A stretch of DNA of 51,348 bases from Promethearchaeota archaeon (lineage in GTDB: Archaea; Asgardarchaeota; Lokiarchaeia; Sigyniarchaeales; SOKP01), in the NCBI GenBank assembly GCA_048941285.1, contig JBHLNS010000019.1, positions 1 to 51,348 on the forward strand. The letters are read 5' to 3'. Positions 1,107-45,076 of the stretch are shown here, in pieces. The first letter of the stretch is position 1, and every line of letters begins with the position of its first letter. The position numbers and the translations under genes are program-made. The notes below the pieces were generated by a model, which was not told the origin of the DNA, ran no database searches, and worked only from the letters and a program-made list of their open reading frames with translations.

Positions 1107-2222
1107 GTGAAAAATTTGGATAATTCGTTTGGTACAATCTATAGAATAACCTCTTTTGGAGAGAGTCATGGAGATTTAATAGGGATCATAATAGATGGAG
1201 TTCCTGCGGGATTAGAATTTGATTTAAATGTTATACAAAATGAAGTAGATAGAAGAAAACCAGCTCAATCATATTTAACATCTCCTCGTTTTGAAGAAGA
1301 TCGCGTTAAAGTATTGGCAGGTGTTTACGAAAATAGAACAACAGGAGCACCACTATGTCTAATAATTGAAAATAAAGATATAGATTCTTCAGTATATGAA
1401 AATTTTCGAGATATTATGCGTCCATCCCATATTGATTATCCGGCATTAAGAAAATATGGTGGATTCTCTGATCCACGAGGTTCAGGTCGTTTTTCTGGCA
1501 GAATTACTGCAGGGTTTGTAATGGCAGGTGCTATGGCTAAACAGATATTGAAAAAATATGATATCATGATTTTTGCTTATGCAAAAAGTATTGGAGATAT
1601 TATTGATAATAGGGAATATTCTCCAAGCGAGATTAAGAAGTTATTTGAATTAAGAACAAAATCTCTTGTTGGAGCAATTGATCTGGAAAAATCAAAAGCA
1701 ATGGAATCATTAATTGAAGGAGTTAAAAAACTAAGGGATTCAATTGGTGGGATGATAAAATGCATTATTTTAAATTTTCCAGCAGGGAAAGGTAGTCCTG
1801 TATTCAATAGCATAGAGTCTAATATTAGTAACGCAATTTTTGCCATCCCTGCCATAAAAGCGATAGAATTTGGTGTTGGCTTTAAAGCAGCTAAAATGAA
1901 AGGCTCTGAACACAATGATCCATGGATAATAAAAGATGGAAAAGTCCAAACTACTAAGAATGATGCGGGTGGGATTATTGGGGGGATTTCAACAGGGATG
2001 CCTATTGAATTTACAGTAGCGGTTAAACCGACTGCATCTATAGGGATTCCTCAGAAAACTATCAATATTAAAACTAAACAAAATGTAGAATTTGAATATT
2101 CTGGTCGATATGATCCATGTATAGTACCAAGAGTAATTCCAGTTGTGGAGGCTATGACTGCTAATGTTTTACTTGACATTTTACTACGTGAAGGTTTCAT
2201 TCCCAGGATCTTGAAATCTTAA
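1107..2222 (+). CDS. aroC: chorismate synthase
   Basis: FGESHG, RPSHID, GRFSGR, VKPTASI and GRYDPC signature motifs. Confidence 0.97.
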   Translation: MKNLDNSFGTIYRITSFGESHGDLIGIIIDGVPAGLEFDLNVIQNEVDRRKPAQSYLTSPRFEEDRVKVLAGVYENRTTGAPLCLIIENKDIDSSVYENFRDIMRPSHIDYPALRKYGGFSDPRGSGRFSGRITAGFVMAGAMAKQILKKYDIMIFAYAKSIGDIIDNREYSPSEIKKLFELRTKSLVGAIDLEKSKAMESLIEGVKKLRDSIGGMIKCIILNFPAGKGSPVFNSIESNISNAIFAIPAIKAIEFGVGFKAAKMKGSEHNDPWIIKDGKVQTTKNDAGGIIGGISTGMPIEFTVAVKPTASIGIPQKTINIKTKQNVEFEYSGRYDPCIVPRVIPVVEAMTANVLLDILLREGFIPRILKS

Positions 2223-2315
2223 ATAAAATGATAATCAAATAAACGTTATTAATAATCATTAAAATGTAAAATAAAAAATTAAAAAGAGCAAAATTTTTAG
2301 TATATTATTAAGTGA

Positions 2316-2570
2316 ATGATCGTGCCTACACCAAACCAAGAAAAATTCATTGAAGAAATCAATAAAATTATAGATAGATGGTCATTTGAACAGTGCGCTC
2401 ATTGTGAAAATGGAACATTAATTTCAATCGATGGAATGCTTGATTTTAAATGCAGTAAATGTGGAAAAACAATGAATCCCGCTGAATATTTAGGAGAGAT
2501 AGCTAAAACTGTTTTTGCTTATAGAGAACAACTTGAAAATCTTAAAATTAAAAAAGAGAATGATGATTAG
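2316..2570 (+). CDS. small Zn-ribbon hypothetical protein
   Basis: CAHC...CSKC pair in an 84-aa ORF. Confidence 0.7.
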   Translation: MIVPTPNQEKFIEEINKIIDRWSFEQCAHCENGTLISIDGMLDFKCSKCGKTMNPAEYLGEIAKTVFAYREQLENLKIKKENDD

Positions 2571-2658
2571 ATTATAACATCAAACTTAATGAATAATTTA
2601 AATAATTTAAATTATTAAACTCAATTCTTTCATTTATTGAAAAATTAATTAGTTAATT

Positions 2659-4092
2659 ATGGTGGTCATGCCGGTTACTGCAGTGTTATTAGGGGCTGGA
2701 AGAAGGGGATTTCACGTTTATGGAAGTTACGCTATAAAAAATAAAAGAAAGCTAAAATTTGTTGCTATAGCAGAACCAATAAAAAAGCGACGTGAGAATT
2801 TTGCAAAATTACATCAAATCCCTTCTAATAAATGTTTTAGAAGTTGGGAAGATTTACTTTCGAAGCAAAAGCTCGCTGATGTCGCATTCATATGTACTCA
2901 GGATCAAATGCATGTAGAGCCTACTTTATTAGCATTAGATAAAGGATATCATGTTTTGCTAGAGAAACCTATCGCAAGTAAATTAACTGATTGCATTAAG
3001 ATTGTCCAGAGAGTCGAGAAGACAGACAGGATTTTAGGGGTTAGCCACGTTTTAAGGTATGCTGATTTCTTTTTAACTATCTTCAAAATAATTAAATCTA
3101 AATTACTTGGAGATATTATTAATATTTCGCAGCGAGAGAACGTGTCATGGTATCATATGGCCCATAGTTATGTGAGAGGACCGTGGGCAAATGTAGAGAA
3201 ATCTTCACCAATAATTCTAACGAAAGCGTGCCATGATTTAGATTTATTATATTGGATGGTAGGTAGCCTACCAAAAAAGATAAGTTCTTTTGGTAGCTTA
3301 TTCCATTTTAAACCTGAGAATGCACCTAATGGAGCTCCAAAATATTGTCTAGATGGCTGTCCAATTAAAAATACTTGTAATTATTACGCTCCAAGAACCT
3401 ACATCGATATAATCCCGATAATTCAAATTATGCTAAAGGGAAAAAACAAGTTATATAAATTTATAGGAAATTTAAGATATAGACATATAAAATTATTAAC
3501 GTTTCTATCTAAAATATTCCCTCAATTTAAGAGATTAAGGTATTGGAGTGAATGACCTGTTTATTATCTTTATACAGAACAGAAAGAAGACTATTCAGAC
3601 GCGGCAAAACTTAAACTTCTTAAAACAAGTCTATATGGCAGATGTGTTTATTATTGTGATAACACTGTAGTTGATCATCAAGTTGTAAATATTGAGTTTG
3701 AAAATGGTACAACAGCTAATTTTACCCTACATGGCTTTAGTGAGAAAGAAGGTAGAACCCTAAGAATTGATGGTACAGAGGGAACACTATTGGGTGAATT
3801 TCACGATGCATATAAGAAAATAACTCTTTACAATCATTACTCAGGTGAAAAGAAAGTTATATTAAACCAAAAATTATCTCTTCGCACAGTTGAACATGGT
3901 GGTGGAGACATTAAGTTAATTGACGCATTTCTTGATTCAATCACAAACCCGAATACTAAAAAACCTCTAACAAATGCTAGGGAATGTCTTGAAAGTCATT
4001 TGATGGCTTTTGCTGCTAATGAATCTCGTATAAATGGAACTATAATCAATATGGATGACTTTCGCAAGAAATCCGAACTATTTTTACGGTAA
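2659..4092 (+). pseudogene. Gfo/Idh/MocA family oxidoreductase interrupted by a single in-frame TGA at 3553-3555 (pseudogene, sequencing error or readthrough)
   Basis: GAGRRG Rossmann motif, LEKP and KACHDLD. The frame continues open after the TGA (PVYYLY...YGRCVYYCDNTVVDHQVV...) into the 3790..4092 ORF (HGGGD, ESHLMAFAA), giving 477 codons. Confidence 0.8.
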
Positions 4093-4165
4093 AAATATAG
4101 TTAAGTTATTATAATTGATATCATAAAATATCTTATTCATACCAAATTTAAAAAGCTAAATTAGA

Positions 4166-4393
4166 ATGGAAAAAGACAATATTGATACATCTAGTCAATT
4201 TATTGAATTTTATAAGAAAAAAGGAGATTACCTTGTTTCTCTTTCGGAGAATCATTTCAAGAATGTAGAATATCGTAAATGTCTTGAATTATTAAATCAG
4301 GCTTATGGAATGTACATGAAAGGGAATTATACTGAACTTGCTGAAAAAACAAAACAAAGATTCTTAGAAATTAAAGAAAAATACTTTAAGTAA
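4166..4393 (+). CDS. small helical (TPR-like) hypothetical protein
   Basis: 75-aa ORF with TPR-like pattern YRKCLELLNQAYGMY. Confidence 0.6.
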   Translation: MEKDNIDTSSQFIEFYKKKGDYLVSLSENHFKNVEYRKCLELLNQAYGMYMKGNYTELAEKTKQRFLEIKEKYFK

Positions 4394-4401
4394 TTAATAT
4401 T

Positions 4402-4896
4402 TTAATCATATTTAAAAGTTTTACTTAATTTATACTCGATATCTTCAATATGGGAGCCCTGCCAGTACACTTTTTTGCATTGAATGCTCGAACACTGATA
4501 GAAAATATCGAAGTGATTATATGTCTCTTTTAAAACATCCTTTTTAATTGAAATTTTATCTTCAACTCTTTCTAACTTGGAATTACATAAAGAACATCTA
4601 GCTCGTTTTAAGTTAAATTCAAATTTTAAGCCAATTTGCTTATTTAGTTGATCAAGGTAATTATATAACCCTTCCCCTTTAAGAAAGATACTTTTATCCT
4701 TATAACGCCTATATAAAGCTAAATCTTTTGTAATGATAATCCTGTTCTCATTATTTGCATATTCAATTAAAAAGTCATCAGGAACAGGATCTATATTATA
4801 TATCTTTATCAAATCATTAGCGTATACTGTGTTATATCCAAAAATACGCAAGAACCTTGTTAATTTACCCAGCATTGAATTGACTAAAAATTTCAT
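4402..4896 (-). CDS. Mut7-C (PIN-like) RNase domain protein
   Basis: MKFLVNSMLGKLTRFLRIFGY, RIIITKD, RCSLCN, CKKVYWQGSH. Confidence 0.9.
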   Translation of the reverse strand: MKFLVNSMLGKLTRFLRIFGYNTVYANDLIKIYNIDPVPDDFLIEYANNENRIIITKDLALYRRYKDKSIFLKGEGLYNYLDQLNKQIGLKFEFNLKRARCSLCNSKLERVEDKISIKKDVLKETYNHFDIFYQCSSIQCKKVYWQGSHIEDIEYKLSKTFKYD

Positions 4897-4995
4897 ATTG
4901 AAGAAATAAGAATTATTCTAAAGTAAATATATTTAAAGCATCTAATAAATTATATAATCGAAATTTAATCATAATAAAACTTTTTATGAATATAA

Positions 4996-5523
4996 ATGGA
5001 TGCTAAAGGCTTAATGGAAAAAGCTGTAAGATTTCATGGCCACATTTGTCCTGGTCTAGCGATTGGTGTTTTAGCTGCAAAATATGTTTTGGAAAATGGA
5101 TTTGATTATTCACCAAACGAAGAGTTAGTTACTGTCGTTGAGAACGATAATTGTAGTGTTGATGCGCTCCAAGCAATACTAGGTACAACATATGGGAAAG
5201 GAAATCTTGTTCATCAAGATTATGGAAAAATGAATTACTTCTTTTATGATAGAAGAATCAAAAAAGGTGTAAGACTAGCTTTAAAAAGTGAGGAGCTTAA
5301 TAATAAAAAGTTGTCTAGAGATGAAAAGATACAGTTATTGTTAAAATCAAAGCCTGAAAGTATATTCAATATATATGAAATAGAATATAATCCCCCAGGC
5401 TTGGCACAAATAGAACAATCAGTCCCATGTGAGGTATGTGGAGAACTTACTATGAATAGTAGATTAATGACATATAACAACTCTGAGATGTGTATTCCTT
5501 GTTATAAAAAAATAAGAGGTTAA
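4996..5523 (+). CDS. FmdE family protein (formylmethanofuran dehydrogenase subunit E-like) with C-terminal Zn finger
   Basis: FHGHICPG, ENDNCSVDALQ, CEVC...CIPC. Confidence 0.9.
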   Translation: MDAKGLMEKAVRFHGHICPGLAIGVLAAKYVLENGFDYSPNEELVTVVENDNCSVDALQAILGTTYGKGNLVHQDYGKMNYFFYDRRIKKGVRLALKSEELNNKKLSRDEKIQLLLKSKPESIFNIYEIEYNPPGLAQIEQSVPCEVCGELTMNSRLMTYNNSEMCIPCYKKIRG

Positions 5524-5610
5524 AAAAAACAATTTTTCAATTCTAGCTATTTGGACTCAATTACCCTAATAAATTTAATATTATTGATACAGTAAAAATC
5601 CATTCATTTT

Positions 5611-6396
5611 TTGGATAAATTTGAGAGAAAAATGAAAAATATAATTAAGAACATAATGCCTGGTGCAGGACCTTTTTATTTTGAAGGAAATAATATTGGA
5701 ATTCTTTTAATTCATGGGGGAGGTGGTGGAACAGCAGCAGACTTGAAACCTCTAGCAGAAGATTTACACTTGAAAGGAGGTTATACTATTCGTGTTCCTT
5801 TACTTCCAGGTTATGGGACTACACCTAAGGATTTAAAGAATACTTCTATTGATTTTTGGAAATCAGCTCTACATAGAGAAATACGTATCTTGAATGAAAG
5901 ATGTGATAAGATTATTATAGGAGGACATTCTATGGGAGGTGTGTTAACTTTGATTTTGGCTAAAAATTATAATTTGAATGGTATTTTTACCATCAGCGCA
6001 CCACTTGGAATTCAAAGATTTTTATTTCATCTCGTTCCATTGTTTAAAATTTTTATACCATATCATTCTATTGAATCAGAAAAATTTAAAGAAGATACTA
6101 ATGGAAAATGGGTTGGTTATAATAAAATTCCATTAAATATTGCTACAAAGCTGAAAAAACTAATTAAAGAGATGAAAAAATCTTTAAGTGAAATTGAATG
6201 CCCTGCAATTATTTTTCAAGGAAAAAAAGATTCCGAAATTAAAAAAAATAGTATGCTGTATATTTTTGATAATATTAAGTCTACAAAGAAGAGGAAAATT
6301 TGGTTAGAACATAATGATCATCCAATATTAGATAGTCCAGATCACAATGAAATAGTATTAGAACTCGTAAAATTCATTAATGAATTTTGTACTTAA
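5611..6396 (+). CDS. alpha/beta hydrolase, carboxylesterase/monoacylglycerol lipase type; true start may be ATG 5632 or 5656
   Basis: GHSMGG nucleophile elbow, LPGYGT, catalytic D and H candidates. Confidence 0.88.
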   Translation: MDKFERKMKNIIKNIMPGAGPFYFEGNNIGILLIHGGGGGTAADLKPLAEDLHLKGGYTIRVPLLPGYGTTPKDLKNTSIDFWKSALHREIRILNERCDKIIIGGHSMGGVLTLILAKNYNLNGIFTISAPLGIQRFLFHLVPLFKIFIPYHSIESEKFKEDTNGKWVGYNKIPLNIATKLKKLIKEMKKSLSEIECPAIIFQGKKDSEIKKNSMLYIFDNIKSTKKRKIWLEHNDHPILDSPDHNEIVLELVKFINEFCT

Positions 6397-6608
6397 ATTA
6401 TTTATTTTTAAATTAATTACTAAAAATATCAAGATTGGACATTTGCAATTTTTATACAAAATTATGATTAGAAAAAATTTATGGTATTGGCTAATCAGAT
6501 GTCAATCCTTTATTTCTATAAATTTACATAATATTATACGAAAAAAATTAAATGAAATCATAATTGAACAACAGATTTAAATTACTTTATGCATAAGATG
6601 AATAATTT

Positions 6609-7835
6609 ATGATTAAGGATGTAAGTAAAGGCCATACATTATTAATAAAAGGGCCCGCAAGAATAACATTGATAGAAGGAAAAGTTGATGTTTTTGGAAA
6701 AATTTTTACTCCTGGAACAGAGAAAGCACCATTGGAATCTTCAAATTTAAATGATGTTTTAATAGTACCCAGTGCTCACAGTTATCCTATTTATGCTGTA
6801 GAGAAATCAAAAATAGAAATTTATATAAAAACTGAAGAAAATCTTATAAATATTGAAGAAAATTCGATATCTCCCAATTGGAGTGAGATTAAGGACGCTA
6901 TAATAAAGATAATAAAACAAAACCAAGGTATACCTATAAAGATTATGGTATTGGGAATTAGTAGTGGCAAAACAACTTTTATAAAGTATCTAGCGAACAA
7001 TTTCCTAAAAGAAGGTCTAAAGGGGGGCTATCTCGATTCTGATCTAGGTCAACAGATAATTTATGTCCCAACCACAATAAACATTGGCTCCATTGAGAAT
7101 TATATTGTCTCAAGTGAAAATATTAATTCTGAGAAAACAGTATTTATTGGCGCTACTTTTCCAAAAGGTGATTATAAATTCATAGTTTCTCTTTCATCAA
7201 GAAGATTAATAGATGACTACATTGCAAAAAATAAATCGATTAATTTTGTATTAATAGATACAGATGGTTGGATTAAGACTGAAGCGGGGATTCTTTATAA
7301 AAACTTTTTTATCAAAACAGTTGATCCAGACGTTTTAATTATATTTCATGATGAGACAATTGAGGAACTCCAGACAATAGAAAAAACCTCCTCAAGTTCT
7401 AGAAAAGATAGAAAAATATACTTAATCAAAGATAAGAATAAATATTTTTATGAAAAAGATAAAGATGAAAGAAGATTTTTACGTCAAAGTCAATTTTCAA
7501 AGAAATTTGAAGAATTTAGGAAAATTTCGATTCCTTTAGATATGATGAAATTTATAAAAAAAGAATATGACAAAGAAAAAGATCAAATTTTTGAAAAAGA
7601 AATAGACGTCTACGATCTTGTTAATCTTCCTTATCATTATGTAATTATTGGCTTAATGTCTGAAAAATCTGAGTTAATAGAAATTGGACTTCTTTTCACT
7701 GTGAATATTGAAAAAAATTATATTTTACTATATTCAAACTTAACTTATAAGCAACAACTTAAGGTAAAGAAGATTTTAATCGGTTCACTTAGGTTAAGCA
7801 TAAAAGGGAATCATCAGGGATATTTATATCTTTAA
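6609..7835 (+). CDS. Clp1/Grc3/Nol9-like polynucleotide 5'-hydroxyl kinase
   Basis: N-terminal LIKGPA beta domain, GISSGKTT P-loop, LDSDLGQ, PTTI, IDTDGW. Confidence 0.85.
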   Translation: MIKDVSKGHTLLIKGPARITLIEGKVDVFGKIFTPGTEKAPLESSNLNDVLIVPSAHSYPIYAVEKSKIEIYIKTEENLINIEENSISPNWSEIKDAIIKIIKQNQGIPIKIMVLGISSGKTTFIKYLANNFLKEGLKGGYLDSDLGQQIIYVPTTINIGSIENYIVSSENINSEKTVFIGATFPKGDYKFIVSLSSRRLIDDYIAKNKSINFVLIDTDGWIKTEAGILYKNFFIKTVDPDVLIIFHDETIEELQTIEKTSSSSRKDRKIYLIKDKNKYFYEKDKDERRFLRQSQFSKKFEEFRKISIPLDMMKFIKKEYDKEKDQIFEKEIDVYDLVNLPYHYVIIGLMSEKSELIEIGLLFTVNIEKNYILLYSNLTYKQQLKVKKILIGSLRLSIKGNHQGYLYL

Positions 7836-7931
7836 CTTTTTATTTTATCATTAAATACATTTCAATTTTTATTATTTCAAAATTGGCAATAAGACTAATT
7901 TTTTTAAATTTTGAAATAATTATAATAATTT

Positions 7932-9377
7932 ATGGATGAGGATCTTCTCACTAAGTTTCTGAAAATGATGTCTTCAGAAATTTCAGAATCAGATTTAGAA
8001 TTAATTAGTTTGGGAAAATCATTAGGATTAGATTTAGTATCATTTGCCGATTTGAGAGCATCTCAAGATGATTCATTTACCGATGAAGTAAGAAATAAAG
8101 CTTTAGATATTATGAAAAAAGATATGGGCAATGTATTGAACAGTAGGGATTCATTTTATGCTGGTAGTATCGATTTCATGGTATCTGATGAACCTAATAG
8201 TAAAAAATTTTTCCTTTTAGAAACGAATGGAGGTTCTCACAGAGGACTCTCAATAATTACCGAAAAACAACAAACTATTTTATATGATGGATATTTAGAA
8301 GCTATTAACCAGGCTATTTATAGAAATAAGAATAATCTCAATAAAATTTTTGTAATAGTCGGTGTAACGATTAACGACGGCCTAATTCATGAAAAGATAA
8401 TAATGATAGAATATTTTAGAAAATACCTTAAAGCTAATGGGCATTCTGTAAAAATTTTTAATACGGAAAATTACGATAAAGAATTCAAAGCGGAAATTGT
8501 ATTTCTAATAGCCGATTATAGCCAATTGTCCATATCTCTTTCATTTTCAAACAACTGGATTAAATATAATGGAGAGGAAGTTAGTGTATTAATTGGTGAT
8601 GGAATAACGAGACGGTTCAATAATAAAAAGTTCTTAAAATTAATTAAAAAAAATTTTCATAAGATAAATTCAATTTTAGTAAATCCTATTTATAATGTAA
8701 CTGACGATAAGTCTTTAACATATTTAGCAAGTTATTTTAGTAAAGAAATTCTCAAAAAGTATAATTTAAAATATCTTATATTCACAAAAGCATTCACGGA
8801 AAAAGATTTAATTGAAAAATTAAAGTATCTTATTAGAGAATACAACAAATCGTTTATTATCAAACCTAGTGGGGGATCGGGAGGAGCGGGAGTAATACCT
8901 ATTTCTAGGGAGGAGGATGTCCTTAATATTAAAAATCTTGTTGAAAAAAGTAAAAATGAATTTTTTGCAAAATTTACTAAAAATCGTAATCCTTTTCCGT
9001 ACACTATCCAGGAAATGGCTGATTTCTCATTAATAGATTGGAAGGGAGGGAAACACACATTTGATTTACGCATTTATTTAGCTCAAAAAGATTGTCAAGT
9101 TATCCCTATAGGAGGGTTAGCTCGAATTGCACGTGAACAATTTGTTAATAAAAAAATCCTAAATAAGCAAGAGTTTGTTGTAAATTTATCTGGGTATAAT
9201 GGCCAAATTGAAGTTCAACGTGGAATAGGTTTTTCGGAGAATAATTGTAGGCTATTAAATTTAACCAAAGAAGATTTTGTAAATATGTTTTGTATAGGAT
9301 GTGTATTATTTACAAATATAGTAAAAAATTATAAAAAAATCATCAATTTTTCAGATTGGAAAAAGATTTTTGATTGA
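7932..9377 (+). CDS. circularly permuted ATP-grasp amide ligase
   Basis: IDFM...FLLETN near the N-terminus; IKPSGGSGGAGV, TIQE, DLRIY and GGLAR in the C-terminal half. Confidence 0.7.
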   Translation: MDEDLLTKFLKMMSSEISESDLELISLGKSLGLDLVSFADLRASQDDSFTDEVRNKALDIMKKDMGNVLNSRDSFYAGSIDFMVSDEPNSKKFFLLETNGGSHRGLSIITEKQQTILYDGYLEAINQAIYRNKNNLNKIFVIVGVTINDGLIHEKIIMIEYFRKYLKANGHSVKIFNTENYDKEFKAEIVFLIADYSQLSISLSFSNNWIKYNGEEVSVLIGDGITRRFNNKKFLKLIKKNFHKINSILVNPIYNVTDDKSLTYLASYFSKEILKKYNLKYLIFTKAFTEKDLIEKLKYLIREYNKSFIIKPSGGSGGAGVIPISREEDVLNIKNLVEKSKNEFFAKFTKNRNPFPYTIQEMADFSLIDWKGGKHTFDLRIYLAQKDCQVIPIGGLARIAREQFVNKKILNKQEFVVNLSGYNGQIEVQRGIGFSENNCRLLNLTKEDFVNMFCIGCVLFTNIVKNYKKIINFSDWKKIFD

Positions 9378-9577
9378 AATGACTATTGAAACTCGGTCGA
9401 ATCTGTATTCTATAGAATTAGAGGCTTAAAAGCATTTTTTTCACTTTTTTGAAGAAGTCAAGAATTCAAAATCAGATCCTAATTACTTCGAAAAAAAACT
9501 TATTCTTATTAATATTGGCATAGAATTAGCTTTAAAATCTATAAAAGCAATGAATAATTTATTTTAAAACCATACCA

Positions 9578-10579
9578 TTATGAATTAAGAAAATTGAGAG
9601 TAGCTCCGATTAATATAGATTCATTTTTCTTCTGAGAATGTCCTCCTTTCTTTAAGATTATAATATTTTTTTTAGGGGGTTCTAAAATCAATATATTTTC
9701 TTTTAAATTTTTGAATTTTATGACTTTATCGTTTTTACAATGTATTAACATTACTCGCTTTGCGAGTTTTTCCCATTCTTCTGAAGTTATCTCCTCTTTT
9801 ACTTTTTTCATTAATAGAAAAGGGCTTAATAGGTTATCTTCTTTGGCATTTGGGAATAATTTCACCCCTTTCATTATATAACTAAGCATAATAATAAGAT
9901 TATATTTTGGTATATTCTGTTTATAATGAGACATTGACGAAATAGCAATAATTTTCTGAATTATTTTATTAGAAAAACCTCCAGATAAAACAGTAATAGC
10001 ACCAATACTAAAACCAATACAATATACTTTTCTATTTATAAATTCTTTTTGATTTTTTACCCAATCAATAATTTCCTTAAAATCTTCGATTCTTTTTAAA
10101 AAATCACTTCTTTTCCCAGTCTTTTTTGACTTTCCAGTACCTCTCGCATCGTAAGCCAGTATTATGTAGCCCTGATATGCAAGTGGAAAATAGAAATATT
10201 GTAATGTTTCTTTTGTGTCGGAAAAACCGTGACAGACTATAATAATAGCATTTTTTTTATCAACTTTTGATTGATTACGATTTATTACTAGATTTCCCGA
10301 TAAAAGTCCATCAGTCACGCCAATTTTAATATTTGAAACCTTGAGATCTTTGAGAAAAAGTTTTCTCCACCTATCAAACCAAAGATCTCTAAAAGACCAA
10401 TAAATCTCAAAAGGAACATATACAATCAGGAATGTTGTAGTTGATAAAGTAAAGCATTTAGAGAAAGCTGTTGTATAGCAAGGATTTCCAAATGAAATAT
10501 TTATTTCCCAGATATACCAGCTAATTAAAATATCAATAATTATTAATATGATGCGTTTTAAAAGATTTGAAAGCAACAT
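9578..10579 (-). CDS. membrane-anchored alpha/beta hydrolase
   Basis: Two N-terminal hydrophobic segments; CHGF, YDARGTG, GFSIG, NDKVI, GGH. Confidence 0.85.
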   Translation of the reverse strand: MLLSNLLKRIILIIIDILISWYIWEINISFGNPCYTTAFSKCFTLSTTTFLIVYVPFEIYWSFRDLWFDRWRKLFLKDLKVSNIKIGVTDGLLSGNLVINRNQSKVDKKNAIIIVCHGFSDTKETLQYFYFPLAYQGYIILAYDARGTGKSKKTGKRSDFLKRIEDFKEIIDWVKNQKEFINRKVYCIGFSIGAITVLSGGFSNKIIQKIIAISSMSHYKQNIPKYNLIIMLSYIMKGVKLFPNAKEDNLLSPFLLMKKVKEEITSEEWEKLAKRVMLIHCKNDKVIKFKNLKENILILEPPKKNIIILKKGGHSQKKNESILIGATLNFLNS

Positions 10580-10646
10580 ATTCCCTAAAAGAGTATAATC
10601 TAAAGCGATTTAGGTGATTAATTAATAAAAAAATAAAAAATAAAAA

Positions 10647-10964
10647 TTATGGCATTTTTGGTTTTGGACATCCATAATCATGAGCAATTTTACAATCTGG
10701 TTTGCTTCTTAAACCGGGACAGGGTTTACATTTAACATCTCGTAACATTTTCACGATATCATCTACTTCCATCCCAAATTCTTCATCCTCATCTTCATCT
10801 GCTAACATATCATCTTCGATTTTACTTAAATCATAATCTAAATCTTCTTCTAAATCATCCTTCCAATCAGCAAGATCCAATATTTCATCTCCTTCTTCAT
10901 CTACTTTTCCATTTGGAACTTCATATTCATCTTCTTCAATTGGCGTACTCTTTTTTTTAGCCAT
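10647..10964 (-). CDS. very acidic small protein with C-terminal Cys cluster
   Basis: ATG at 10964 (the track starts at GTG 10973); long D/E-rich tract, then CKPC...C...H...C. Confidence 0.75.
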   Translation of the reverse strand: MAKKKSTPIEEDEYEVPNGKVDEEGDEILDLADWKDDLEEDLDYDLSKIEDDMLADEDEDEEFGMEVDDIVKMLRDVKCKPCPGLRSKPDCKIAHDYGCPKPKMP

Positions 10965-11081
10965 ATCTCTCACTCACAATTTTAATTTATTTTTAGATAT
11001 TATTGTTTTAATATATAATCTTTGTTAAAATTTAATTTTAATTCGACTTTGAATAACGAAAAATAAAGTAAGAATTGTATT

Positions 11082-13178
11082 TTAGCTAAAATTATTTTTT
11101 ATTATATCTTCTATTTGATTTAATAAATTTTTATTCGAATATAATTGGTTAAATAACATGTTTATTTGATTTAAATTAGAATCTAATTCCTTTAATGAAT
11201 AGACTCTATAATTTTTTATATCAAATATGGGGATATAAAACTTAAATAGGATTTTTTGTGATTCTACTTTTAAATCTAATAAATCTCGCAAGATATTGTA
11301 ATCTAAATTAGACTTTAGGTAAAATTCATCTAAAAATAGCAATTTTACTAAAGAATTGTTTAAAAAATTGAAAAATTTGAGGTATATATTTATTTTTTTA
11401 TAGTATTTCATGTTAAAGGTCTCTAATTCAGCACTTTTAACACTTTCAGAATTATATGAATCAAGATCATATTTTAACTGTGAAAGTAGTTGCAATATCC
11501 TTCCTAGGTAAGATAAAAATATCGGAAATTTTCTTGGGACTGGTAATCTTTTAACAAAACTGCCGTTGAATCTTAAATAACCTCCAGCCATATGTAGTGT
11601 ACCAAATAATGTTTTGAAGATTATGTCCATGAATGTAGAATTCAAAATAGTCAGAAGACAAAATAATTGATCGGTGTTTAATGAATCAATTTTTATGAAA
11701 TAAAGCCCTGTTATATTTACAAATACACCAGGATCATAGCAAAAAGTCAAATCTTTTCCAATTTCTCTAAAAATTAGTTTTTCGCTATTAAGATTTTTCC
11801 AAATTTGCTCAAAATTAGAACGATAATTAAAATATGAAACTATGATGTTTTTGCCTGCAATTTTTATTCTTTTGCTAAATTTAACATAATATTTATCAAT
11901 ATTGCCTGTACCAATTAACAACAAGTCATCGTCTGATTTAGGTTTATCGCTTATATTATCAAAAAATTTGCTATATTTTAAGAAACCAAAAGGCCGATAT
12001 ATAATTTTTAAATCTTTATAGGTTTCTGCCAGTGATTCGAAGTGTTTATATATGTATGTTATTAATTTTATATTTCCTGAAATTGGAATAACTCTTGATG
12101 GTAATTCATTAATTATCTTTTGATCGAATTTTATTATCATATTTCTTTTATATTCAATTAACTCGTTCATATGATTCACTTTTTTAATAGTTACCTCTTT
12201 TTCCTTGTTAGTTTTATCCTTTTTTAATGATAGAATAATTGGGTACGTAGAGGTCTTTTGAAATATGGGTAAAGATGATATATTTATGATTTCTTTTATT
12301 GCTGTTTCATTTGATAATAATAATCTCACTTTAAAGCCATAATCTGCAGATAAAAATTTATTAGGTAAAACAAATGAAAGAAACCCATTTTTTTCTAATA
12401 ATTCTAAAGATTTCTCAATAAAAATAATTGAAAGATCAAATAAACCATAAGCTGTTTTATATCTCTTGGTTATCTTTTTTTTTAACTCCTTATCCTTAAT
12501 CTTTTTATTTTCTACATAAGGAGGATTTCCAATTATTATGTCGAATTTATCAATATTAAAGTCGAATAGAAAATCAAGGTTGAAAAGATTAAATTTAAGA
12601 TCGAGTTTTTCTATCATTTGGTGAATAATCTTGAGACTTAAATTTTTAGTGTTTAAGTTATGAAAGATTTGATCGTTCATATCAGTGGATATAAGCCATT
12701 TAAATAATCTCAATTTTGAAATATTAATAGCTGATTTTTCAATTTCAATTCCATAGAGGTTTTTCTGAATTATTTTTTTTTTAATATCGACACTAGATAA
12801 TTCAGGTTCTACTTTTTGATAAATTTTATATAATTCTTCAGCTATAGATATTAAAAATCTCCCAGAACCACAAGATGGGTCTAAAATCTTTATACTTTTT
12901 ATTTTTTTATTTAAATTTTCTTTATTTTTCTGACTTTTGACTAATTGATTAAATGCTTCTTTTAAGTTAGTTTCAATTTTGAAAATATTCAGAGAATTAA
13001 AAAACTCTTTAAAATATAATTTGAAAATATTAGAAACCATCTGATCTACTAATTGATTTGGTGTATATATTATACCAAGATTACGATCACTATCTTTTCC
13101 AAAGAGTTTTTTATTTTCAAAACTCTCAATTTGCTTTTCAATAAAACTTAATAAATTTTGAGCTAATTTTTTATCCAT
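11082..13178 (-). CDS. N6-adenine DNA methyltransferase, Eco57I/TaqI-like (gamma class), no nuclease domain seen
   Basis: GIIYTP (motif X), DPSCGSG (motif I), GNPPY (motif IV), TaqI_C-like LLTILNS...KRLPVP. Confidence 0.88.
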   Translation of the reverse strand: MDKKLAQNLLSFIEKQIESFENKKLFGKDSDRNLGIIYTPNQLVDQMVSNIFKLYFKEFFNSLNIFKIETNLKEAFNQLVKSQKNKENLNKKIKSIKILDPSCGSGRFLISIAEELYKIYQKVEPELSSVDIKKKIIQKNLYGIEIEKSAINISKLRLFKWLISTDMNDQIFHNLNTKNLSLKIIHQMIEKLDLKFNLFNLDFLFDFNIDKFDIIIGNPPYVENKKIKDKELKKKITKRYKTAYGLFDLSIIFIEKSLELLEKNGFLSFVLPNKFLSADYGFKVRLLLSNETAIKEIINISSLPIFQKTSTYPIILSLKKDKTNKEKEVTIKKVNHMNELIEYKRNMIIKFDQKIINELPSRVIPISGNIKLITYIYKHFESLAETYKDLKIIYRPFGFLKYSKFFDNISDKPKSDDDLLLIGTGNIDKYYVKFSKRIKIAGKNIIVSYFNYRSNFEQIWKNLNSEKLIFREIGKDLTFCYDPGVFVNITGLYFIKIDSLNTDQLFCLLTILNSTFMDIIFKTLFGTLHMAGGYLRFNGSFVKRLPVPRKFPIFLSYLGRILQLLSQLKYDLDSYNSESVKSAELETFNMKYYKKINIYLKFFNFLNNSLVKLLFLDEFYLKSNLDYNILRDLLDLKVESQKILFKFYIPIFDIKNYRVYSLKELDSNLNQINMLFNQLYSNKNLLNQIEDIIKNNFS

Positions 13179-40831: not shown

Positions 40832-41740
40832 TTAAAATACAGTTATTATTCTTCTTCGATTTTTTCTAATAAGTATTACTAAAATGATAATTATGGCAAT
40901 TCCAATAGACGCTGAGATATTAATAATAATTATTATTAAGAATCCATCATCGCTAGGTCCATAGTATGTGACTCCAATAAAACCATCAGGAACTTGACTA
41001 TTATTCCATAAGCATATAAAGACAGTTCCTCCATTGATATCAACAAGTTCATATTCAGGTGAGAATGCCGATCCTCCTATACTAAATACAGGTTGTTTGC
41101 CATAAGCTCTTAATTCTACTCTCCCTGAAGTATTTCCAATCCATTCTTGCGAAGTCCCTATATGATATATCATATAAAATGGGTCAATGGAATCCAAGGG
41201 ATTAAAAACCTTAGTATGAATATAATATCCTATCATTGATGTGCTGTTCTTGATTAGTGTTACATTAGTTTTAATAAAATTTATTGGATACCGTTCAGTA
41301 AACCAAGGTGGATTGGTATCAATTGCTGTTAAAGTCTCATTCCAATTTGAGATCCTGAATAAGCTATGAGGGATTTGTGTATTATTTACATATACTTCAA
41401 TAATAGATTGAGACATATTTATATCCAAAGACAAGGGTAAGATAAATGAGACATCAGTAGAATTCTCTGCATAATTTATTGTGTAATTTGCTTCAAATTG
41501 GATATTAATTTTATTCGGGAGATCAGTTGCGTTAAATGTTATAGTAATATCACTATTAATAAGCTTTAAAGGTAATGTGCTATTTGGAAATATTTCAGAA
41601 ATAAACTGATCTGGAGGGGAAGGTGGAGGAGGCGCAAATACTTTAGGAATTGTAAAAATATTATTTATTATAATAATTAAAATAAAAATGTTTAGAACTT
41701 TTTTCCCTGATACTTTCATTTTCATACGCTTTTCAATCAC
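40832..41740 (-). CDS. cell-surface glycoprotein (signal peptide, Pro-rich start, DUF4424-like beta domain, C-terminal TM anchor); start may be a few codons downstream
   Basis: VFA-PPPPSPP, many NxS/T sequons, YHIGTSQEWIG, C-terminal TM followed by RKNRRR. Confidence 0.7.
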   Translation of the reverse strand: MIEKRMKMKVSGKKVLNIFILIIIINNIFTIPKVFAPPPPSPPDQFISEIFPNSTLPLKLINSDITITFNATDLPNKINIQFEANYTINYAENSTDVSFILPLSLDINMSQSIIEVYVNNTQIPHSLFRISNWNETLTAIDTNPPWFTERYPINFIKTNVTLIKNSTSMIGYYIHTKVFNPLDSIDPFYMIYHIGTSQEWIGNTSGRVELRAYGKQPVFSIGGSAFSPEYELVDINGGTVFICLWNNSQVPDGFIGVTYYGPSDDGFLIIIIINISASIGIAIIIILVILIRKNRRRIITVF

Positions 41741-41949
41741 TCTATAAGATCTAACACAGATGCTAGGTATTTATTAAATATGAATTTTCTAATCTTCTTT
41801 ATTCAATTCAATTTAAAAATATTTAGTACTAAAGGTTGCGTTCTAAGACAATAAGTATGTCTTTTAAGACTAATATCTTGTTTAATAAAAATTAATAGTG
41901 GAAATCATAAAATTTAGTACAGAATGTTTATATTGTTATTTTTCAATTT

Positions 41950-42423
41950 TTGATCCTTAGTATGTTTTCATTTAATGATTTTGTAGAAAAATATAGCCTT
42001 AGCAATTTTAAAGCAGTATTAGAATTAAAAGGTAATGATAAAATTAACTTTTATAACGATTTAAACTCAATAATGGAGGGTATTTGTAGAATATTTAATA
42101 GATTAACGACGATATTTTCTCTTAGAGGTGGACAGGTTTTAATGAGTTTGGCTAAATTACAAGCATCTGAGGAAATTATTTCAAAAACTGATATTATGAA
42201 CTGCTTAAATATAGATAGGCGAGAAAAGTTAATTCATGCTTTCGATTTTTTACTTGAACAAAATTATATTAAGATCAAGAAAAAAACAACTAAATTCCAT
42301 ATGGTTGAATTAAATGAAAAAGATAATCCAGACTTTAGATTATTTCGAGAAATTGTTCAGAAATTTTGGATTTCTCCTCAAGAAGAGAAAACTGAAACAA
42401 AATCATGGAGGGAGTTAAAATAA
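41950..42423 (+). CDS. winged-helix hypothetical protein
   Basis: ISKTDIMNCLNI...AFDFLLEQNYIKI...VELN pattern. Confidence 0.6.
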   Translation: MILSMFSFNDFVEKYSLSNFKAVLELKGNDKINFYNDLNSIMEGICRIFNRLTTIFSLRGGQVLMSLAKLQASEEIISKTDIMNCLNIDRREKLIHAFDFLLEQNYIKIKKKTTKFHMVELNEKDNPDFRLFREIVQKFWISPQEEKTETKSWRELK

Positions 42424-43286
42424 GAAATTTGAATGAAAAGCATGTTGAGTTTTATTATGAAAATAGTGATAAGAAATTAAAGTTTCTCAGTTTAATTAAG
42501 AAAGAATATATTAAGCAGGTATACAGATTAACCATTTGGCTAATAATATTATTTTTAATATACTCAATTTATTATACTCTTTTCTATCGATTTTTAATCA
42601 TTGAAGTTCGAGTGTTTTTAAATCAGTTTGTAGCAGGGATTATTTTTACCACATTTTTATTAATACATTTCTTTCAGTTAACTTTCTCTAAATTTTCACC
42701 TTCACTAGTAAATCTTCTTTACTCTGAATTAAAAAATTTAGATTTCGAAATTAAAAAAAAATATAAAATGGGATTAACCTTTTTTCTTTTTAATAGTCTT
42801 GCGATAACTTTTTTCATTTCAATTAATGTATTTATTCAATCTTCTACTGATTATTTTATTTCTTCTTTAACTATAAGATTTATGATTATATTTATTTTTT
42901 CCTGTACAATAATTCCTCTAATTGGGGGCGTATTTCATGATAAATTTATTGTTAAATTAAAGAGTCCCTATTTTGTAAAAATATATTTACGATTTAAATT
43001 TATGAAACACTCAGAAGCTGAAGCTCATATGATTAGAATTTTGATGACGTCAAGCAAATTGTGTTTAAGATCAAACAAAAATGGTTATGTTATTTACAAA
43101 GAGATTTCAGAGAAAAGATGGTTACCAATAAAAAGTAGATTTATCACTCCAAAATTTCAATTAACTAAATATTTGCATTTTCAAGACAATTCGTCATTCA
43201 TTAATTTTAAAGAACACTTTTTAAATATCGTCTCAGCAATTAGAGAATGGGATATCAAATATCTTAAAAAGGATACTCACGTGTAG
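42405..43286 (+). CDS. membrane protein with about four TM helices and a basic C-terminal domain
   Basis: Hydrophobic segments; overlaps the upstream gene by 19 nt. Confidence 0.65.
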   Translation: MEGVKIRNLNEKHVEFYYENSDKKLKFLSLIKKEYIKQVYRLTIWLIILFLIYSIYYTLFYRFLIIEVRVFLNQFVAGIIFTTFLLIHFFQLTFSKFSPSLVNLLYSELKNLDFEIKKKYKMGLTFFLFNSLAITFFISINVFIQSSTDYFISSLTIRFMIIFIFSCTIIPLIGGVFHDKFIVKLKSPYFVKIYLRFKFMKHSEAEAHMIRILMTSSKLCLRSNKNGYVIYKEISEKRWLPIKSRFITPKFQLTKYLHFQDNSSFINFKEHFLNIVSAIREWDIKYLKKDTHV

Positions 43287-43298
43287 AAAACTTATTTT

Positions 43299-43402
43299 AA
43301 AAAAATTAAAAAGGACAGTTCCCCCAGCAAAACCTTGAATAGAATGAGTGTGTGAGGTGAGTATTCAAGCGAATGGCTCAGGGAACTGGTTATAGAAGTA
43401 TG
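43299..43402 (-). ncRNA. candidate structured small RNA or 3'-UTR element with an anti-SD loop
   Basis: Nested stems 43316-23/43381-88 (8 bp), 43326-28/43376-78 and 43334-41/43362-69 (8 bp); 20-nt loop CUCACCUCACACACUCAUUC; U-tract after it; CTTATAAA box at 43432-43425. Confidence 0.55.
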
Positions 43403-43452
43403 ACTGTATTACTATAACAATTAATTTATAAGAATAATGAAAATAAGCTCTC

Positions 43453-43719
43453 TTAGGCATTCGCTAAATATTCGTTTAACACAATGTTTAATTCGACTTC
43501 TGAGTTTTGGATTTTCTTCAAAAGATTCCTAAGTCCATACTCATTTAATAATAATTCGACAAGATTCTTATATACTGCTGTAATGTTATCTTTCCCTGCT
43601 TCATAATAGAATTTATCGTCACTTAGGGTAAGATCTAAAATATCGTATAAACCTTTTAAGGCTTCCTTTATATTTTCAAAATTTACAACAGCTTTTTCTT
43701 TCGATTTTGAACTATTCAT
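43453..43719 (-). CDS. 88-aa helical hypothetical protein
   Basis: Strong SD (GAGGTGA) 9 nt before the ATG; TTTATATA box upstream. Confidence 0.8.
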   Translation of the reverse strand: MNSSKSKEKAVVNFENIKEALKGLYDILDLTLSDDKFYYEAGKDNITAVYKNLVELLLNEYGLRNLLKKIQNSEVELNIVLNEYLANA

Positions 43720-43725
43720 TTCACT

Positions 43726-43765
43726 TACTCACCTCAATTATATTATGTAATTGATCATATATAAA
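43726..43765 (-). promoter_or_regulatory. TATA box and Shine-Dalgarno of the 88-aa gene
   Basis: Minus strand TTTATATA (43765-43758) and TGAGGTGAGTA (43736-43726). Confidence 0.6.
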
Positions 43766-44055
43766 GATGACGATTTCCGTTTATTATGATGCAATATATC
43801 GAAAATATGAATGATGGGATTTATCACCATTCGGCGATAATAGTGAAAGTAACTTTTGCTTACCTATCACATATAGAATAATCACATGATTCTATGTCAA
43901 CTTTTGGAAAAATAGATATCGATAATTGATCATCAGTGATGAAATCAATCACAAAATATTGAACTTTGATCAACCTCAAGATAAAAACACAAGGAAAAAA
44001 TAAGATTAGAGCAGTTCTTTTTGAGTTTCATACATTTTTGAGATGGTAGAAGAAT

Positions 44056-44092
44056 AAAAGAAAAAAAAAGAAATTCGATCTCAACGATCGAA
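44056..44092 (-). terminator. hairpin plus U-tract terminator of the 44117..45076 gene
   Basis: TTCGATC-N5-GATCGAA (44074-44092) followed on the minus strand by TTTCTTTTTTTTTCTTTT. Confidence 0.6.
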
Positions 44093-44116
44093 CAATTATA
44101 ATTTTATTAATAAATA

Positions 44117-45076
44117 TTACCACTCAGATACCCAGAACGTCCAAGCCCATGAAATAACGCTTTGCGATCTGCTTTGTCCAATGCCATCGTACCAACTAAC
44201 TTCATGCTCAATTGTATGCTCCCCCATATCTAGAGTAAATGGTTCGAAAACAAAGTAAAAAATTAGCCACTTGACAGGTTCCCCATATATTAATCCCTCT
44301 GTATCATCCCACCAGAATTTATTTAAATTTAATTCTTCTCCATCTAAAACCATAGTCCATGAATAAGGGGGTGTAAATATATGTTCTTCTTTTTCAGAAG
44401 CTAATTGCCCCATTGCTACACTAATATAATTGGTCTCTGCGGTATTTATTTCAATTCCATTTGTTATTCGATTTTCTCCAGTTAATAAAGAGTTAATTAC
44501 TTGCCCATGTTCAAATTGATTAAGTCCAATTTCCTCGTAATTTGTAATTAGGGTTAGAGTTCCTGGACCTCCAATTGGATGATATGGGCCGTAAGGCCCA
44601 TCAACTCCGCTTTCTGGATCCAAAAAGCTCGCGTAAGCCCAATTCCCGCTCAAGCAAAATACAAGTGTAATTTCCGCCTCAGAATATGTATCAGTTTGAG
44701 TTTTAACCACTCCATTCCCTACGATTATCCAAACATATTGCCACCAACCACTTAACTCCGTATACCACCACTCGAAATAACCCGCCCATCCTCCTTTAAG
44801 TCGCCCATGACATAACAATGTTTCTTCCCCACTTATGGGATCAATAAAAATTTTTTTAAATTCTCCATTATCCAACCATGCATTATTGTAATCGTATTCA
44901 ACGTTTCCCTTGATTAAAACTCTAGCATTAGGATCCCATAAATCTGCTCCTTCACCCCTCATGTGTAGTTTTACTACTAGACCTGATTTCACGGCATTTA
45001 CTTGAACTGCAACGCATACTGTACCTAATAAAAAAAGTATAGAAATTGCCAAGAATACTTTTATTTTGGTTTTCAT
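44117..45076 (-). CDS. secreted Trp/Gly-rich beta protein of unknown function
   Basis: Signal peptide ending VNA; GGAG SD; no C-terminal anchor. Confidence 0.75.
   Translation of the reverse strand: MKTKIKVFLAISILFLLGTVCVAVQVNAVKSGLVVKLHMRGEGADLWDPNARVLIKGNVEYDYNNAWLDNGEFKKIFIDPISGEETLLCHGRLKGGWAGYFEWWYTELSGWWQYVWIIVGNGVVKTQTDTYSEAEITLVFCLSGNWAYASFLDPESGVDGPYGPYHPIGGPGTLTLITNYEEIGLNQFEHGQVINSLLTGENRITNGIEINTAETNYISVAMGQLASEKEEHIFTPPYSWTMVLDGEELNLNKFWWDDTEGLIYGEPVKWLIFYFVFEPFTLDMGEHTIEHEVSWYDGIGQSRSQSVISWAWTFWVSEW

Follow-up and report, generated by a model that had tools for sequence, protein, structure and literature searches.

Methanosarcina mazei has two small RNAs (sRNAs) that offer the nearest described parallels to the element considered here. 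According to the parts of PMC5867862 on which we draw, sRNA154 is a stem-loop whose loop carries a sequence complementary to a ribosome binding site (RBS) and masks the RBS in the mRNA of glnA2, and sRNA41 is proposed to repress translation by RBS masking as well. The element that we describe is a hairpin on the minus strand of contig JBHLNS010000019.1 of a Promethearchaeota archaeon (GenBank assembly GCA_048941285.1; the 51,348 nt analysed, positions 1 to 51,348, are called the window below). It follows a gene for a protein of 88 amino acids (aa) and carries the exact complement of the Shine-Dalgarno (SD) region of that gene. Like sRNA154, it is an archaeal stem-loop with an anti-RBS sequence in its loop; unlike sRNA154 (RF02906), to whose model it scores far below the gathering score, it comes from another phylum, has one functional loop, sits directly downstream of its candidate target in the same orientation, and exists in several copies. 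The targets of sRNA41 are internal RBSs of the polycistronic ACDS mRNAs, reached from a distant locus, whereas here the RBS is the 5'-terminal one of an adjacent monocistronic gene.

In the bacterial type I toxin-antitoxin (TA) system hok/Sok, an element at the 3' end of the mRNA pairs with the 5' end and initiation region of the same mRNA and blocks translation. If it acts in cis, the present hairpin would likewise be a 3' element working on a 5' initiation region, although the locus has neither an overlapping antisense RNA nor a small hydrophobic toxin, its host is an archaeon, and there are additional copies that may act in trans. We know of no defined base-pairing motif of this kind from the haloarchaeal work on functional interaction between 5' and 3' untranslated regions (UTRs). 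The portions of the haloarchaeal literature used here describe an mRNA's own 5' and 3' UTRs as acting jointly in translational regulation (PMC2636863) and SD sequences as largely unused at 5' UTRs (PMC3986360). Neither a full-text literature search nor Rfam gave any described regulatory RNA of Asgard archaea, although the supplements of papers might list some. The present RNA belongs to no curated family, and is set apart by its co-directional position 3' of its own target, its multiple cassette-closing copies and its host among the Promethearchaeia.

The reading that we prefer, with a probability of roughly 0.6, is that the hairpin is part of a riboregulator, an RNA of about 75-100 nt whose loop masks the SD and 5' end of the adjacent 88-aa mRNA and lowers or gates its translation.

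The hairpin and its copies

The features of the locus are the following.

43295..43396, minus strand: full match to the covariance model R1 (short leader, hairpin, U-tracts); 88.9 bits in cmsearch (E 2.5e-23), over all 104 model positions (1-104)
43388..43316, minus strand: nested hairpin, minimum free energy (MFE) -27.7 kcal/mol
43376..43388, minus strand: 5' arm of the outer stem, CAGUUCCCUGAGC, from the MFE structure; helix pairs kept in 93.6% of cells in 47 copies
43316..43328, minus strand: 3' arm of the outer stem, GCUGGGGGAACUG, from the MFE structure; its G·U wobbles fit the minus strand only
43362..43369, minus strand: 5' arm of the inner stem, CUUGAAUA, from the MFE structure and the alignments
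43334..43341, minus strand: 3' arm of the inner stem, UAUUCAAG, from the MFE structure and the alignments
43353..43363, minus strand: anti-SD 11-mer UACUCACCUCA of the apical loop, exact complement of 43726-43736; holds UCACCUC
43299..43312, minus strand: U-tracts (U5, AA, U7) that follow the outer stem directly, a candidate 3' end for the transcript
43397..43452, minus strand: spacer between stop codon and RNA, with a TATA-like CTTATAAA at 43432..43425, a candidate and unproven sRNA promoter
43453..43719, minus strand: 88-aa gene (open reading frame, ORF), candidate target, for an uncharacterised helical protein
43724..43737, minus strand: RBS block UUGAGGUGAGUAAG, with the ATG 4 nt after it; bases 2-12 pair with the loop
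43758..43765, minus strand: TATA box TTTATATA of the 88-aa gene, with GATCA motifs on both sides; minor variants aside, kept in every one of the 18 upstream regions aligned

A sequence-only reading of the window had described a nested, GC-rich hairpin that gains a U·G pair on the minus strand and runs into a U-tract, and folding bears this out. The minus strand folds at -27.7 kcal/mol with z = -4.23, and none of 200 shuffles is equally stable; the plus strand of the same stretch gives -27.6 kcal/mol, z = -2.48 and 2 of 200. On the minus strand CAGUUCCC (43388..43381) pairs with GGGAACUG (43323..43316), an outer stem extended by the U·G pair and by AGC with GCU, while CUUGAAUA (43369..43362) pairs with UAUUCAAG (43341..43334), and the nested stems enclose a 20-nt loop. 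The stem is followed by UCC-UUUUU-AA-UUUUUUU (43315..43299). Among 41 copies, the run of T just 3' of the 3' arm has at least 5 residues in 27 and at least 4 in 37. U-tracts terminate archaeal transcription (PMC8716108 and PMC7515710, in the parts cited), so that their presence after the 3' arm in most copies fits an archaeal U-tract 3' end.

When the element was compared with related genomes by BLAST, full-length copies were found in several genomes of the window's genus, with six inside 18 kb of one contig in genome G003. Nineteen full-length copies were aligned with MAFFT, unfitted to any structure (alignment A1), and R1 was built from A1. Among 134 other genomes of the archaeal family to which the window's genome belongs, R1 finds matches in 26 (23/53 in the window's genus, 3/42 in a second genus and 0/39 in eleven further genera), with 1-6 copies per carrier genome. 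When 596 Gb of genomes and IMG/VR were scanned with a loose two-arm pattern, 116 genome-contig stretches came back for rescoring with R1; those that score with R1 are the Promethearchaeia loci already known, the rest are chance matches, and none of the six pattern matches in viral contigs scores. The carriers in this wide scan are recorded as metagenome-assembled genomes of Promethearchaeia or Promethearchaeota. On these comparisons the RNA is an undescribed family, confined among the genomes scanned to some Promethearchaeia. The expectation that it matches no known RNA family held when Rfam was searched: across the whole window nothing attains a gathering score, and the best sub-threshold match, to sRNA154 (RF02906; 20.8 bits where the gathering score is 88, E 0.24 with 1.5 kb searched), runs through a C/A-rich loop. 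There is no tRNA or transfer-messenger RNA in the window.

The paired architecture is retained across the family. In A4, an alignment of 47 copies to R1 which leans towards the model, 90.9% of stem cells are paired, against 23-49% when partners are slid; in the unfitted A1 the figure is 91.8% against 29-52%. A4 has forty-nine G·U cells which, read on the plus strand, would turn into A·C mismatches (one pair, for example, is U-A in 34 copies and U-G in 13). These cells are compatible with one strand only, which identifies the minus strand as the RNA strand and upholds the orientation, with the anti-SD sequence in the loop, that the sequence-only reading had favored. The same reading had offered as a weaker alternative a plus-strand SD in front of a 14-codon ORF (43373-43417). 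This SD-like sequence is the complement of the loop, and there is an equivalent in G003 copies a, b and d, but the start codon is present in just 4 of 19 aligned copies (the window's genome, G000, and these three) and missing in 15, and such a non-conserved start rules the ORF out.

The part of the element that is best conserved is not in the stems. The columns of the loop 11-mer are 97.3% identical, against 77.6% for all columns, in the 47 copies, and the 11-mer is exact in 37 of them. An unpaired loop that is better conserved than the stems around it points to a sequence-specific partner.

Predicted pairing with the ribosome binding site

A partner is at hand. The window has just two occurrences of TACTCACCTCA, one on the minus strand (43353-43363) and one on the plus strand (43726-43736), where 100 shuffles give an expectation of 0.00. 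The complement site, UGAGGUGAGUA (43736..43726), lies 6 nt upstream of the ATG of the 88-aa ORF, on the same strand as the loop. A perfect 11-nt apical complement to this RBS had been claimed at the outset, and the match is indeed exact, but its first two bases (UA) are closing pairs of the inner stem and do not belong to the loop. The mean unpaired probability of the 11-mer is predicted to be 0.83, so that the RNA offers what an RBS-masking riboregulator should, an accessible single-stranded region complementary to the SD of its target. Throughout the 3.55-Mb assembly, both strands counted, the RBS-sense 11-mer TGAGGTGAGTA is found at 4 sites, where composition would lead one to expect roughly 1.

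The window's own assembly is without a 16S rRNA gene, and the 16S tail was therefore taken from a genome of the same genus that carries the RNA. There the 16S rRNA 3' end is GGAUCACCUCCU, which makes UCACCUC the anti-SD core in that genome, as had been stated of archaeal 16S ends in general, and the loop contains it. The loop and the RBS are predicted to form a duplex of -18.6 kcal/mol, compared with -11.5 for the SD and the 16S tail. Outside the 7-mer the likeness to 16S ends: the window's copy aligns no better than shuffles (188/300 with the whole same-genus 16S; 183/1000 with its last 70 nt), and descent from the 16S 3' domain, or mimicry of it beyond the 7-mer, is ruled out by local alignments at shuffle level. 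One G003 copy has a lone stray match of 18 nt elsewhere in the same-genus 16S.

The link to the 88-aa gene that was proposed from the window holds in every genome with a close ortholog. Close orthologs of the protein (74-94% identity) are present in 23 genomes, and the RNA accompanies the gene in 23 of 23; the next-best homologs, at no more than 63% identity, are in genomes with no R1 match. Together with the window and five metagenome contigs this gives 29 gene-RNA pairs, and at all 29 loci the RNA is found 16-75 nt 3' of the stop codon, on the same strand. At the paralogs of the gene (at most 62% identity; 17 matches at 15 loci) no anti-SD hairpin lies downstream. These paralogs have SD-led starts and GATCA/TATA promoters, and their RBS regions differ from one another.

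The RBS block of 14 nt, UUGAGGUGAGUAAG, is identical at 26 of the 29 loci while its flanking bases vary, and each of the three variants (G148, G135 and G033) has an answering change in its own loop. In G148 and G135 the RBS reads UUAAGG and the loop CCUUA, a change of G-C to A-U, and in the related contig mgE the CCUUA loop goes with an RBS of the standard form, a G·U intermediate. In G033 the RBS GAGCA is combined with the loop CGCUC, a change of U-A to C-G, along with a C-to-U change that gives G·U. Two further changes in gene-adjacent loops, C to U in G001 and A to G in mgA, both yield G·U. In a table of the pairs, read by eye, loop positions 2-11 are able to pair with the RBS in 29 of 29. 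In a tree of the 88-aa genes, G148, G135, mgE and G115 share a supported clade to which G033 does not belong, so the compensations are two separate events. The co-variation of loop and RBS on which the sequence-only reading had staked its proposal is thus present, and the complementarity behaves as that of an RBS-masking riboregulator should, being both conserved and co-varying with its target (two compensatory events, with G·U intermediates). Predicted energies follow the same pattern. For G148 the duplex with its own loop is -16.3 kcal/mol and with the standard loop -14.1, and for G033 the own duplex is -17.2 and the swapped one -15.9. The G148 RBS pairs with the 16S tail at -8.5 kcal/mol, compared with -11.5 for the standard SD, while pairing with the loop is kept in G148 and G135; the RBS of these two has thus moved away from the complement of the ribosome and retained that of the loop.

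From these observations we infer that the minus strand gives rise to an RNA of about 75-100 nt with an outer stem of 11-13 bp, a short middle stem, an inner stem, the 20-nt loop and an end at the U-tract. The loop UACUCACCUCA would form 11-12 bp with UUGAGGUGAGUA, the SD region, which would lie at the mRNA's 5' end or close to it. The TATA box TTTATATA ends 20 nt before UUGAGG, and from this distance the 5' UTR of the 88-aa mRNA is probably very short. Such pairing would conceal the SD from the 30S subunit, and translation of the 88-aa protein would most likely be lowered or gated.

Several points weigh against this interpretation. The compensatory loop-RBS events that are independent number just two, with a rough chance probability of about 0.005 that is not corrected for the tree, and an AT-biased genome would also produce C-to-U changes. 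Three of the 29 gene-RNA pairs (G001, G011 and G033) no longer form the terminal base pair, that of loop position 1. Stem covariation, proposed as a check along with the hairpin, gives a divided answer: A4 has double changes at 8 pairs, against 2.1±1.3 in shuffles (0/500 reach 8), and this significant signal comes from the model-fitted alignment, whereas in A1 it is not significant, with 53-88 of 500 shuffles reaching the observed values. The nested MFE structure of the whole putative transcript of 443 nt leaves the SD and the loop unpaired with each other, a result that is uninformative because contact between the loop and the 5' end would be a pseudoknot, which is beyond that program. On the other side, contigs from two RNA libraries of close relatives span the gene 3' end, the spacer and the 5' arm (43358-43563 and 43379-43596), a weak hint of transcription through the spacer, although they end inside the element and DNA carry-over is possible; in the four runs labelled as RNA, uncovered parts of the stretch are uninformative.

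Action in cis or in trans

The RNA may act as a 3'-UTR fold-back, as a separate or processed sRNA (the sequence-only reading had offered the fold-back and the separate sRNA), or as both. The spacer in the window has no T-run of 5 or more and is bridged by the two RNA-library contigs, points on the side of a 3'-UTR fold-back. In many orthologous spacers a T5-T7 run comes right after the stop codon and is followed by a TATA-like box about 20-36 nt upstream of the stem. Across 41 copies there is a T-rich tract and then an A/T box about 35-55 nt upstream of the stem, weakly conserved at less than 1.2 bits per position. In DNA of 30% GC, such T-runs and TATA-like boxes are a weak sign of a separate sRNA.

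In many genomes additional copies of the RNA stand behind unrelated genes, which from reading of their ORFs alone appear to encode LRR, ComF-like, ferredoxin and MarR-like proteins, and these genes are without a complementary RBS. Among the 18 non-adjacent copies of at least 56 bits, the 11-mer is exact in 15, has a G·U-compatible change in 1 and a disruptive change in 2. Stand-alone copies with an intact loop probably act in trans on the same 88-aa mRNA, as far as their sequences allow one to judge. Several of the extra copies also carry a remnant of the last 20-30 codons of the 88-aa gene together with the spacer, and the duplicated unit therefore includes the spacer.

A large set of copies is in G003 (L028, G003:C7:74500-94499), where every one of five direct copies, at 1368-11192, ends a unit of one gene or two. 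The units are the 88-aa gene, the genes of two LRR paralogs, a DprA-like gene paired with a ComF-like one, and a ferredoxin gene. A sixth copy is on the opposite strand (L028 18588-18688), and the LRR units hold the 3'-end remnant of the 88-aa gene and the spacer. In G036 an LRR gene lies between two copies of the RNA (L031 4783-5826). In its sequence each of these arrays is a case of cassette-like growth via duplication around the RNA.

The window's genome has a second, partial copy (L002, G000:C3, 382-478) just after a 73-aa 4Fe-4S ferredoxin ORF (185-406). Its loop and 3' half are kept, with an exact shared block of 14 nt, and its 5' arm is replaced by the coding end of the ferredoxin gene. 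In G003, too, the ferredoxin gene is followed directly by this partial copy. In G026 and G005, low-scoring copies that follow what reads as the 3' end of a ferredoxin gene have the loop AUAUUUACCUCA; if two G·U pairs are allowed, this loop could still bind the RBS.

The RBS-sense 11-mer UGAGGUGAGUA is also found upstream of a 143-aa gene at G000:C82:16615-17055 (L109) and at G000:C57:8699 (L110), before a possible GTG-started ORF near a contig end. Six homologs of the C82 gene were read, including three of 72-85% identity; five have an ordinary GAGGTGATT and one has GATGTGATT. With the extended match absent from all six, one of them in the RNA-bearing genome G009, C82 was rejected as a conserved extra trans target.

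A bolder form of the proposal, possible but in our estimation doubtful, is that the locus is a self-contained switch peculiar to the Promethearchaeia. The mRNA would be born closed, its SD paired to its own 3' hairpin, and duplicated copies would serve as trans repressors, giving a cis/trans hybrid family with no described counterpart.

Other explanations, and the 88-aa gene

The pairing itself could have the opposite effect, in that the loop might shield the 5' end of the mRNA from 5'-to-3' decay or hold the mRNA in store, so stabilising or activating it. We consider this unlikely. It would suit a paired block that, judged from the TATA box, probably sits at the mRNA's extreme 5' end, and Methanosarcina sRNA154 is reported to stabilise some of its targets and to block translation of another (PMC5867862, in part). 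Yet the paired block covers the whole SD in a duplex stronger than that of the SD with 16S, and some loss of initiation would be hard to avoid.

An account that we hold to be less likely again is a general anti-SD mimic, titrating a small regulon of strongly SD-led mRNAs of which the neighboring gene would be one target among many. The 16S core UCACCUC in the loop and the many copies away from the 88-aa gene are what one would expect of such a mimic, and strong SDs are few. The heptamer GAGGTGA is rare in the window's genome, with 179 sites on both strands (3.55 Mb, 29.7% GC), of which just 22 have an ATG 3-10 nt downstream, and the full RBS-sense 11-mer recurs at C82 and C57. However, the complementarity reaches 4-5 nt past the SD core in a manner specific to the RBS of the 88-aa gene, and the extended match at C82 is not kept in its homologs. 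Since the loop tracks the RBS changes of the 88-aa gene, a specific target is more likely than the general decoy that the sequence-only reading had raised as an option.

That the hairpin is a mere terminator or 3'-end stability element, spread by duplication and matching the RBS only incidentally, is improbable. The copies do lie at gene 3' ends, always in gene orientation and with U-tracts after them, and the genes in front of the extra ones are unrelated; the weak stem covariation in the unfitted alignment would also be in keeping with this explanation. Archaeal termination is not known to require more than U-tracts. A terminator needs neither an unpaired loop conserved at 97% nor compensation with an RBS some 370 nt away.

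The label "type I TA-like" given to the locus at the outset is not supported. None of the results points to toxicity, and we think it very improbable that the 88-aa protein is a toxin with the RNA as its antitoxin. An RBS-masking RNA beside a small gene, with a possible 5'-3' fold-back, does resemble hok-type control; the loop-RBS pairing is of the kind by which an antitoxin RNA pairs with a toxin mRNA, with the RNA here co-directional and downstream; and the protein has a weak sub-threshold match to AbiJ_NTD4 (E 0.03; 15.2 bits, with the cut-off at 34). But type I toxins are small, usually under 60 aa, and hydrophobic or membrane-active. The 88-aa protein is charged, has no long hydrophobic run or membrane helix, and is modelled by AlphaFold2 (40 sequences) as four helices with a predicted local distance difference test score (pLDDT) of 90.5. 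Its family has matches in 117 of 134 related genomes, usually as several paralogs, most of them without the RNA. The RNA is co-directional and non-overlapping. Searches with the protein gave nothing significant in Pfam, NCBIfam, PADLOC, a PDB sequence profile, Foldseek against PDB, or ESM Atlas. On the structural model, the product is predicted to be a soluble all-helical member of a widespread Asgard family.

The least credible explanation, a DNA-level element such as a recombination or attachment site or a repeat resembling a miniature inverted-repeat transposable element, draws on the five direct G003 copies that each close a gene "cassette", some with the 88-aa 3' remnant, in a superficially integron-like way, and founders on the 49 G·U cells that fit one strand only, on the loop-RBS co-variation, an RNA-level signal, on the low number of copies (merely 1-6 per genome, and 0/6 viral-contig matches scoring with R1), and on core motifs in the order GTT...AAC, the reverse of the R''/R' order of attC. 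The attC site of integrons has the architecture R''/L''-L'/R' (RYYYAAC ... GTTRRRY) with a variable centre. The present element shares with it imperfect inverted repeats that close successive cassettes in the G003 array, but its GTTCCC ... GGGAAC order is reversed, its centre is the most conserved part and its wobbles fit one strand; attC was rejected on the reversed motif order and the conserved centre, with no search for an integrase made nearby.

Upstream of the 88-aa gene lie about 260 nt of conserved non-coding DNA (43738-44010, minus sense; the orthologous regions are in alignment A5), with repeated TGATCA/GATCA motifs, two of which flank the TTTATATA box. GATCA also stands beside the TATA box in several of the paralog promoters that were read. 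Folded as an alignment, these 260 nt give no consensus structure (-0.54 kcal/mol), and from their sequence the GATCA repeats look like operator sites for some regulator, possibly the product of the family itself. The neighboring genes at 40832-45076 encode a multi-pass membrane protein of 293 aa, a protein of 157 aa, and two of 302 and 319 aa that each begin with an N-terminal hydrophobic segment. These four have no Pfam match (E up to 1), and those of 157, 293 and 319 aa have no PADLOC match (E up to 0.1). The gene neighborhood of the 88-aa gene varies between genomes.

If riboregulation of the 88-aa mRNA is the correct reading, the Promethearchaeia would have a concrete and comparatively supported RNA-RNA interaction, with a named target site and two natural compensatory variants. 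SD-dependent initiation would be not only used but regulated in this lineage, and an uncharacterised, widespread family of Asgard small proteins would be linked to tight post-transcriptional control. Were the cis form true, the closest archaeal relatives of eukaryotes would possess a base-paired, closed-loop mRNA.

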